A stretch of 64,000 nt of DNA. Origin: Octopus vulgaris. Its lineage: Eukaryota. The position numbers were made by a program, and so were the translations under genes. Shown piece after piece: positions 37,999 to 61,446 of this stretch. The stretch's first letter is position 1, and each line of letters starts with the position of its first letter. The notes under the pieces were generated by a model. The model ran no database searches. It worked only from the letters and a program-made list of their open reading frames with translations, and was not told the origin of the DNA. The stretch is from positions 6,262,001 to 6,326,000 of the forward strand of contig OX597826.1 in assembly GCA_951406725.2 (NCBI GenBank), read 5' to 3'.

Positions 37999-38041
37999 GT
38001 ATATATATATATCATATGTGTATACATATATATATATGTAT

Positions 38042-38500
38042 AAGGGTGAAAAGGAACACACGAGTTGATATATATGAAAAAACAAGTCAAAAATAGAAAA
38101 TGCTAAAATAATTTTATAGTGAACATTTCAGTACCGGTTTCGGTCATTTTGAGACCTTTTCAACTGTAACGATTAAATAATTAAATTTAGAAAAATTAGA
38201 AAAAAAGTTTTTTTGAAGGAATATTTCTATAGTAGTGTTCAGATTTAAGTGGCATTCTGCCTTTCTCTGACTCCCTTGTTTGCACTTGTGTGTTGGAGGT
38301 CGTTGTGAGTTCTTGGTAGGGTAGTAGAGGAAGAAGGCTGGTGAGGAAGGGGGTGGGAGAATCTGGGAGTGCCCTGATGGTCGTATTTTGAATGGTCAGT
38401 GGCGGCTGGCAGTCGCGCAGTTCAATTCAGGAGAATATTTATATTGACAGGCTTGTTTATAGAATTTGCGTAGGTGTTATACTAAAAAACATTAGTGACA
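38042..38500 (-). mobile_element. Penelope-like element 3' remnant
   Basis: Minus-strand HLRKFYKQACQYKYSPELN resembles the GIY-YIG C-terminal P.LN end; downstream UTR carries an HHR and ends at (TA)n. Confidence 0.6.
38129..38166 (-). ncRNA. Minimal type-I hammerhead, U3-A8 variant
   Basis: CAG-UUGAAAA-GGUC(UCAAAAU)GACC-GAAA-CCGG-UA-CUG; all three helices pair, helix III palindromic (ACCGGU). Confidence 0.75.
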
Positions 38501-38521
38501 AAGTTAAGGGGTAGGGGGTGG

Positions 38522-38722
38522 AGAAGTAGAAGAAGAAGAAGAAGAAGAAGAAGAAGAAGAAGAAGAAGAAGAAGATGACGATGTTGATGATGATGATGAA
38601 GAAGAAGAAGAAGAAGAAGGAGAAAGGAGAAGATGACGATGATGGTGATGGTGGTGATGATTATGACGACGATGATGATGATAATGATGATGATGAAGAA
38701 GAAGAGGAAGAAGAAGAAAAAA
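38522..38722. repeat. (GAA)n/(GAT)n compound microsatellite
   Basis: Direct reading. Confidence 0.9.
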
Positions 38723-38984
38723 CAGAGAAGGGAGAATATGAATGGGTTAAAGTAGTGAGGTGTTGTATGACTTGAAGTTGGTATGTTATGGATTATAGCT
38801 GTGATTTTAGCTGTGATTAGTAATGGATTCTTATATACATATATACGTATACCTATATATATACACATATATAGACCTAAATATACATATATACATATAC
38901 ACACATATATACATGTACATATATACAATAATGTACGTATATACGTGTGTATGTGTGTTTTGTGTGTGTTTGTGTGTGTTTGTG

Positions 38985-47115: not shown

Positions 47116-47158
47116 TATGTGCACACACATACATATCCATGTGTGCGTTTGTATACAT

Positions 47159-47221
<63 letters not shown>

Positions 47222-47355
47222 TCAATAAATGGTGAGGTTGTGTTGACCGCACGTGGAGAAATGATAACCAAGGAAAAATTGTAAAAATGCAGAATGCTCG
47301 ATTGAAAGAAAATTTTAATGAAATGAGAAAATGAAAAAATATATAAATATATATT

Positions 47356-47397
47356 TATTCAAACCGGTTTTCGTCATAGTTTGACTTATCAAGAATA
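47356..47397 (-). ncRNA. Minimal hammerhead, U3-A8 variant
   Basis: UAUUC-UUGAUAA-GUCA(AACUA)UGAC-GAAA-ACCGGU-UU-GAAUA. Confidence 0.7.
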
Positions 47398-47848
47398 GTT
47401 AGGTGAAAAGGTTTTTTAAAAATAAGAAAGGGGAAAAAAAGTTGCATTGTTTTTTGCAAAAGAATAATAATAAATATGTATACAAATTAAAAAATAAGTA
47501 CTCCGATAAATTGTGAGTTCGTTGTGTATCTTGAGTTTAATGATTGTTCACGAAAAAATTACCTTGAGGTATTAGGATCCAATGGGATTAAGGCCATGTG
47601 TTGTTTGGTTTAATTTAGGATGTTGGCAAAACAGGAAGTAGTAGTAATTGTGGTTCTTCAGTTCCTGTGTTGTGAATAAGGGGAGACAACTCATTTGGGA
47701 CAACGAACTCACAATGTATCGGAGTACTTTTTTTATTTTTATACATATTTATTTTTTAAATTTTTATACATATTTATTATTATTCTTTTGCAAAAAACAA
47801 TGCAACTTTTTTTCCCCTTTCTCATTTTTAAAAACCTTTTCACCTAAC

Positions 47849-47890
47849 TATTCTTGATAAGTCAAACTATGACGAAAACCAGTTTGAATA
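47849..47890 (+). ncRNA. Minimal hammerhead, U3-A8 variant (mirror copy)
   Basis: tattc-ttgataa-gtca(aacta)tgac-gaaa-accagt-tt-gaata. Confidence 0.65.
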
Positions 47891-48985
47891 AATATATATT
47901 TATATATTTTTTCATTTTCTCATTTCATTAAAATTTTCTTTCAATCGAGCATTCTGCATTTTTACAATTTTTCCTTGCTATATATATATATATATATATA
48001 TACGCATGTGTGTAAGTATGTATATATGTATGTATGTACGTATGAGTTTGTGTTTGTATGCATTTTGCTATATAGATGAAAATAAATGACTGTCCATGTG
48101 TGTTTGTATGTATATGAATCTGCGAAACATCTATAATACACACGCTAAATGCCTGCATATAGTGGGACATATATTTGTCCCCTAACACATATTTGAAACG
48201 CTACATTTATCCCATTTCCGTGAGCTGGCCATGACATATCTAACTGTAGAATTTCTGATGTGTGTAGCACCTCAGACAGAGGATCATATGTCCGAGCGAT
48301 CATATTTTTGCCGTTTATCGTATTTGAGCGATGATTCATAGATATACGAATTGCATTTGACCAAAAATAGTCTGTATATCTCATCCTCATATTGTGTCTG
48401 AAACCATATGAAAAACCCGGACATTGAAGGATTCTGGGATTTAGCATATCTATTGCATACGGTCCATTTCTCACACCATCCATGAGTCTGAATATATAGA
48501 CTGCTCTGAAGACACATTCTTTTTATAGAGGTTGAGATATCTCTATATAAGGATAGTTGGTAAATACGTGGGTTATGTGCTCCTTGGTTAGTTGGTTTCT
48601 CCAATCAAAATATCATTACAAAAATGTATAAATATAAGAAATGTTGGCTGAATGCAAATACTATAGTTGGTGGCAGACAATCATTCAAAGAATTCTAGAT
48701 ACAGAGTAGGAACAGAAATAAATCTCTATTTCTTTTGTTTGTTTCTCTTGAAAATTAGCGCCCAGAAATTTAATGAAATTTATTGTACAATGATTGTGTT
48801 TATGGTATCGTGCATTGTAGCGGAAGTATATTTCCAAAGTCTCTCGTCATATAAAGGGTAACACTTTAGGACCTTAACTTTCTGAGCTTTTATAATTGTA
48901 GAGCAAATTATGATTGTTAGGTATCTCAAGTCGTAAGTTGTGTATATTACATATTTATAAATTTAGTTTTTTTTTTTGCATTTTC

Positions 48986-61026: not shown

Positions 61027-61446
61027 TTAAAGAATATAAGTTTTAGCTTGAAGTGATGAATGCATGGTATCCTTGTATATTTGTGTTAGTCCATCCATTA
61101 AGAATGAGGTAGAAAAAGGAAGTTTGATCAACGAGGAGTTTGCATATTCAATAAAGAGATTCTCCTTGTTAATTCTCTCCTGTGTGGTGATCCCGTCTTT
61201 ACATTGGTAGAAGGGGAATATATAGAATTTGGGGTTTAAGTCTTTAGCACATGAGTCTATGTGGTCACTCAGTGGAATTTGTCGGTATTCCGGGAGATTT
61301 ATTTGTTCTTTATGCACCGCTACTCGTTTGCGTAACGGGAGACTCGTTTGTCCAACATAATTATGTTGGCAACCAGCGCATGTGAGAACGTAGATAAGGT
61401 TCTCGGAGGAACAGGAGAAGTTAGTCTTGATTTTAAACTTCATAAC
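61027..61446 (-). pseudogene. PLE GIY-YIG endonuclease domain (truncated ORF)
   Basis: NFSCSSENLIYVLTCAGCQHNYVGQTSLPLRKRVAVH...PLSDH...ERINKENLFI: LIY/YVG, CCHH, conserved R and E. Confidence 0.88.

Follow-up and report, generated by a model that had tools for sequence, protein, structure and literature searches.

According to the available parts of Cervera & De la Pena (2014; PMC4209133), the hammerheads of Penelope elements cleave weakly and as dimers, and those in the pLTRs of S. mansoni Cercyon covary to U3-A8 in about 1,300 matches. Natural U3-A8 hammerheads are described as rare and as active in vitro in the accessible text of Perreault et al. (2011; PMC3088659). PAc, a Poseidon element of Anolis, carries a hammerhead that is protein-assisted, and its main substrate is the unprocessed RNA, as reported in the accessible portion of Frangieh et al. 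(2024; PMC11167929).

The window, that is, the whole stretch of 64,000 nucleotides of Octopus vulgaris DNA analysed here (33% GC), contains a minimal type-I hammerhead motif with a U3-A8 core at 38129..38166 of the minus strand. The motif is real and is well supported by its sequence, its fold and its exact genome copies. It is of the published kind and does not represent a new kind of ribozyme. The type-I layout, the short helix I, the G10.1-C11.1 pair, the small palindromic helix III and U3-A8 itself are shared with the elements described in the available parts of PMC4209133, and so are the presence of a hammerhead in both pLTRs, the prevalence of solo truncated copies and the opposite-strand pairs. 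Unlike the S. mansoni Cercyon hammerheads of that source, the motif has a 4-bp helix II, lacks the extra base after A9 and resides in a Neptune-like host. The compensatory change at positions 3 and 8 is the one described by Perreault et al. (PMC3088659); in the accessible text of that paper U3-A8 is rare, whereas here it is standard throughout an extensive radiation of retrotransposons. No study of this Penelope family was found in the literature covered; Luense et al., which deals with dimers of Penelope hammerheads, lies outside that coverage and may list these variants.

The reading preferred here, with good confidence, is that the motif belongs to the pLTR of a young, high-copy Neptune-like family in which the U-A pair is family-wide, that it is likely a slow cutter acting only as a dimer, and that the window copy is probably inert.

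Structure of the motif and its host element

Read on the minus strand from 38166 to 38129, the motif is CAG UUGAAAA GGUC UCAAAAU GACC GAAA CCGG UA CUG. It contains the conserved type-I core, N3-U4-G5-A6-N7-N8-A9 ... G12-A13-A14, A15.1-U16.1 and H17. The segment U3-U4-G5-A6-A7-A8-A9 occupies 38157..38163 of the minus strand, and the required Watson-Crick pairing of position 3 with position 8 is present as U3-A8 (U3 is 38163 and A8 is 38158). The core of helix I is 3 bp long (CAG/CUG) and is followed by a predicted 4-bp extension past an A-A mismatch (38124..38171, minus strand). Helix II (38142..38156, minus strand) is formed in the fold by 4 bp, including G10.1-C11.1, closed by a 7-nt loop, and it covaries across the representatives described below. 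Hammerhead numbering puts the cut directly 3' of the GUA triplet, which predicts cleavage between 38132 and 38131 of the minus strand, with A as H17.

In a monomer, helix III would consist of A15.1-U16.1 and C15.2-G16.2 around a 2-nt loop, a structure scored as impossible by ViennaRNA. Helix III is predicted to form only as an intermolecular duplex of the palindrome ACCGGU (38133..38138, minus strand), which pairs only between two copies and has a predicted energy of -8.3 kcal/mol. In the minimum-energy fold of the monomer, U3 is engaged in a non-catalytic pair with A17. The letter-by-letter reading of the motif in the preliminary description, GUA triplet included, is borne out by this analysis, and the need for a dimer that it ascribed to the palindromic helix III is supported. 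Its statement that helices I-III are all paired holds for helices I and II and fails for helix III of the monomer.

The hammerhead descriptor has three matches in the window, all within Penelope repeats, compared with 0.18 on average over 100 first-order Markov resamples of the window. The window motif is not explained by chance. A search of a 401-nt stretch against Rfam gave a weak Hammerhead_HH9 match (19.7 bits, E 0.024, gathering score 52). For a 16-kb stretch, no hammerhead was present among the 150 matches listed of 216; nearly all of those listed were microsatellites that resemble miRNA families.

Comparison with sister copies places the motif in a 5'-truncated solo 3' end (3' UTR / pLTR) of a Neptune-like Penelope element at 38034..38832 of the minus strand, in agreement with the Penelope 3' end proposed in the preliminary description. 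The copy, read from 38832 to 38034, contains an internal (TTC)n/(CAT)n tract and is flanked on both sides by (TA)n-type repeats. Its coding part is lost. Because it retains a single hammerhead and no ORF, it is probably inert, barring read-through and pairing in trans. On this strand, the closest motif to share the palindrome is that of a second family, 9.2 kb upstream. A search of the genome assembly (G000) with a 416-nt query yielded 1,916 candidates, 40 of which were scored and were 98-100% identical. Many copies of the family are arranged as opposite-strand pairs.

The full-length sisters L037 (G000:C8:2239500-2248000) and L051 carry two hammerheads 4,386-4,429 nt (about 4.4 kb) apart. The order of the element is hammerhead, an ATG lying 123 nt past the cut site, ORF1, a frame for reverse transcriptase (RT) and GIY-YIG, 3' UTR, and hammerhead. 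The sister copies encode an RT (RVT_1, E about 1e-8) with DKG and YLDD motifs, followed in translation by the linker CX4CX2C and by a motif of GIY-YIG type. Pfam does not call GIY-YIG on the query protein of the sister copy itself, although the motif is visible in the translation. RVT_1 and PF01541, the latter presumably GIY-YIG, are present on many of the 120 listed homologues.

The sister copies thus have the RT with a C-terminal GIY-YIG domain that defines EN+ Penelope elements, which is absent from the truncated window copy. The other marks of such elements, pLTRs arising from partial tandems, 5' inversions, an optional tail and a hammerhead in the pLTR, are also found. The linker that separates RT from EN in the translations and the (TA)n targets in the flanks are those of Neptune. 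The element shares with the Neptune clade, as characterized in the available parts of Craig et al. (2021; PMC8557442), the GIY-YIG domain C-terminal to RT, DKG, the CX2-5CxxC linker, (TA)n targets, a 30-40-bp tail, partial tandems, inversions and an optional frameshifted ORF1. On these sequence features the host is best placed as a Neptune-like EN+ Penelope element, although according to the same source the linker is also shared by Nematis.

Head-to-tail trimers of the 4.4-kb element, with an intact hammerhead ahead of each unit, are located at G000:C9:10675564-10684636 and C9:55714896-55723926. An assignment to non-LTR retrozymes, which are non-coding short tandem units with a hammerhead, was rejected because here each unit is 4.4 kb long and coding. 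Downstream of the motif the copies end preferentially at two positions, +64 from the cut site in 52 of 91 and +98 in 31 of 91. The 34 nt between them constitute the optional 'tail' (38034..38067, minus strand, in the window copy).

The 3-8 pair within the family and across lineages

The exact 38-mer of the window occurs 1,765 times in the genome, against 0 for the reversed control, so that U3-A8 is the norm for the family. That the young copies are identical is a mark of their recent spread and not of selection. Genome-wide, position 3 is altered in 5 copies and position 8 in 4 more. Eight copies have mismatched single changes and one has the complete C3-G8 pair; natural C3-G8, C3-A8 and U3-G8 variants exist in the family.

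The C3-G8 copy, L071 (G000:C13:524779-524809, minus strand), is identical to the family at the remaining 36 hammerhead bases. Judged from the single changes, about 0.003 such doubles are expected by chance (3 x 2 / 1,765). L071 differs from its U3-A8 subfamily at about 6 of 367 sites. Its 87% identity to the window copy raised the alternative that it is a diverged sister lineage; this was rejected, since all 30 nearest-relative alignments are at 95.5-98.6% and all have U3. The double change is suggestive of a kept 3-8 pairing, although it is a single event within a U3-A8 subfamily.

The pair extends beyond this family. At least seven Penelope lineages of the genome, about 50-60% identical in protein and with a Penelope RT or endonuclease upstream, share U3-A8; for an eighth U3-A8 lineage no Penelope protein was found within the upstream DNA examined. 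The second family, also Neptune-like, is represented in the window by an inverted pair of 3' ends recognized by repeat comparison (47130-47697, minus strand, and 47700-47979, plus strand). Its U3-A8 hammerhead motifs lie at 47358-47395 (minus strand) and 47851-47888 (plus strand), and are characterized by a GUCA/UGAC helix II, a AACCGGUU helix III and a UUU triplet; the palindrome is broken in the plus-strand copy. This family has 1,533 candidates in G000, and its protein is 56% identical to that of the first. An older sister lineage with A10.1-U11.1 has 1,369 matches (control 3). The CCGG palindrome is present in most listed copies of the second family and of the older sister, though neither search demanded it.

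The genome contains 12,466 matches to a generic U3 pattern in which helix III is CCGG (control 151), and A8 is found in 99 of the 100 listed matches, as counted by hand. The corresponding C3 pattern has 536 matches (control 109), a contrast that is overstated, as both patterns are limited to a CCGG helix III. By a hand count, G8 occurs in about 41 of the 100 listed C3 matches, and 34 of these 41 belong to one retrozyme-like repeat. A wider canonical C3-G8 pattern gives 6,206 matches (control 1,387). Among the patterns tested, U3-A8 is thus commoner than the canonical core by at least about 2.5-fold. Above control, at least 12,000 U3-A8 matches stand against about 4,800 canonical ones here, compared with about 1,300 against 2,000 in S. 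mansoni according to the available parts of PMC4209133. Among the matches listed for the wider pattern, several abundant canonical C3-G8 families carry other helix III words (CATG, CTAG and CGTG).

These counts bear on several points of the preliminary description. That the double change C3U plus G8A keeps the 3-8 pair is supported. The family consensus is U3-A8 and not CUGANGA, and searches for CUGANGA do miss this core, as do the Rfam thresholds. The notion that U3-A8 is rare or novel is not supported: it is the commoner core here among the patterns tested and was published before (PMC4209133 and PMC3088659, in their available parts).

Sixteen representatives of the lineages were aligned. 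They are paired in 86.7% of cells versus 63.5% after shuffling, and their helix covariation is 0.63 versus 0.19, a value reached by 0 of 500 shuffles and compared with 0.19 or less in the slid controls; the representatives were picked by hand, which inflates the covariation figures. Helices I and II covary in this hand-picked set, with two-sided changes across lineages. Thirteen of them have U-A at positions 3 and 8 and three have C-G, a split set by the choice of representatives. Positions 10.1-11.1 are unpaired in 7 of the 16, in 3 of them owing to the alignment register. In some U3-A8 lineages helix II is only 2 bp long, or position 10.1-11.1 is unpaired, while helix I has 6-7 bp, an arrangement unusual for hammerheads; these lineages are L198, L202, L218, L232, L244 and L201, L223, L224, L234.

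Descriptors based on CUGANGA, together with Rfam thresholds, can miss most Penelope hammerheads of a genome, so that the counts and the 'no hammerhead' calls in print may be too low. The significance of this is modest. Since the family is young and has near-intact tandems and natural C3-G8, C3-A8 and U3-G8 variants, it offers a handy test set for the role of the Penelope hammerhead.

Cleavage, copying and the role of the fold

The layout of the element and the available parts of PMC4209133, PMC6765202 and PMC11167929 suggest the following course of events. A tandem or full-length transcript would carry two hammerheads 4.4 kb apart, the ACCGGU palindromes of which would pair into helix III, perhaps aided by the element's protein. 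Slow cutting after GUA would release unit-length RNA. Reverse transcription would begin 64 or 98 nt past the cut site, on RNA that is uncut or re-ligated there, and the new copy would insert into (TA)n. Cutting is likely slow and likely occurs only in pairs.

None of the 29 mappable ORF-start copies begins at the cut site, and all start at least 78 nt upstream of it (30 of 117 candidates were examined, some of them overlapping one locus). All copies inspected for their 3' ends, which had been chosen by the motif, span the cut site. The absence of starts at the cut site argues for an RNA template that was uncut, or re-ligated, when it was copied into DNA. In this the element resembles PAc as described in the accessible portion of PMC11167929, where the template is unprocessed RNA and two internal RT start sites likewise define a tail downstream of the hammerhead. 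PAc differs in that its core pair is C3-G8, it has a single ORF and its start codon lies within the ribozyme, whereas here the ATG follows the cut site.

The same absence of starts at the cut site also fits an explanation in which the fold is kept because it serves retrotransposition as a signal, either structural or for protein binding, and cleavage in vivo is negligible. According to the available parts of PMC11167929, mutants of the PAc hammerhead leave insertion in vitro unaffected and RNA-seq ends are absent at the PAc cut site; helix II is weak in some of the present lineages, and PMC4209133, in its available parts, leaves roles other than cleavage open. However, the catalytic U4, G5, A6, A9, G12-A14, A15.1-U16.1 and an H17 other than G are kept in the listed representatives, even if the search patterns themselves required these positions, and U3-A8 cores are reported as active in the accessible text of PMC3088659. 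This explanation is considered rather unlikely.

A broader scenario would combine the observations above: a Neptune radiation of at least seven lineages and more than 12,000 copies, built on U3-A8 and on a shared ACCGGU dimer handle (also found in a 359-bp repeat), with activation by heterodimers across families and damping by U-A until the frameshift-made RT-endonuclease binds. It is a speculative proposal and probably wrong as a whole.

The hammerhead fold looks selected, which is the part of the 'selected variant' in the preliminary description that stands. An advantage of U-A over C-G is without support. Most likely, the replacement is a tolerated compensatory change, fixed early in the lineage in an AT-rich genome. 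The alternative that U3-A8 was positively selected because it damps the ribozyme, for example through U3-A17 pairing, and lets the template survive to reverse transcription would agree with its fixation in at least seven lineages, with its excess over C3-G8 in the patterns tested, with the predicted U3-A17 pair and with copies that span the cut site. Several U3-A8 lineages, however, have C or U at H17, so U3-A17 pairing is not general, and a single early origin with later amplification would account for the counts. Moreover, L226, a decayed copy of a retrozyme-like repeat, is 86.5% identical to the C3-G8 unit and yet has U3-A8; in a setting of 33% GC the mutational path to U3-A8 therefore looks cheap. 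Positive selection of the U-A pair is accordingly regarded as improbable. That the motif is a chance or decayed look-alike, passively amplified with the element, is suggested by its short, A-rich core and by an Rfam score far under the gathering threshold, but is extremely improbable and largely refuted by the genome pattern count (12,466 against 151) and the covariation of the representatives, in which both sides of helices I and II change from lineage to lineage, and the pLTR position matches that in other Penelope elements.

The 359-bp tandem retrozyme-like repeat itself (L166-L172, G000:C1:20000778-20006042) has the canonical C3-G8 and shares the ACCGGU palindrome. Its dispersed relatives L225 and L226 read U3-A8.

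A probable frameshift site and further Penelope sequences

ORF1 of the element spans 436 codons between stops. Its overlap with the frame of the RT-endonuclease, in the -1 register, falls at an in-frame heptamer, U UUU UUA. The -1 spacing is found in 42 of 43 matches in the examined loci, overlapping loci being counted twice. Three related elements have U UUU UUA in the corresponding position, one of them at about 80% DNA identity and two at 58% protein identity, so that it is present in four elements (L037, also L183, L230 and L231). From the sequence, a programmed -1 frameshift at this site is likely. No stimulatory structure was found downstream of U UUU UUA, a point of difference from the Neptune elements of Craig et al. 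(PMC8557442). A frameshifted ORF1 in Penelope elements is mentioned in the Fig. 1 legend of PMC8557442, within the available part of that paper.

A fragment of a third Penelope endonuclease, 57% identical over 97 amino acids, is located at 61150-61440 on the minus strand of the window. Penelope RT-endonuclease homologues were also encountered in entries filed under bacterial gill-symbiont assemblies (P0032, P0050, P0085, P0090, P0091 and P0096), where they are probably host DNA.
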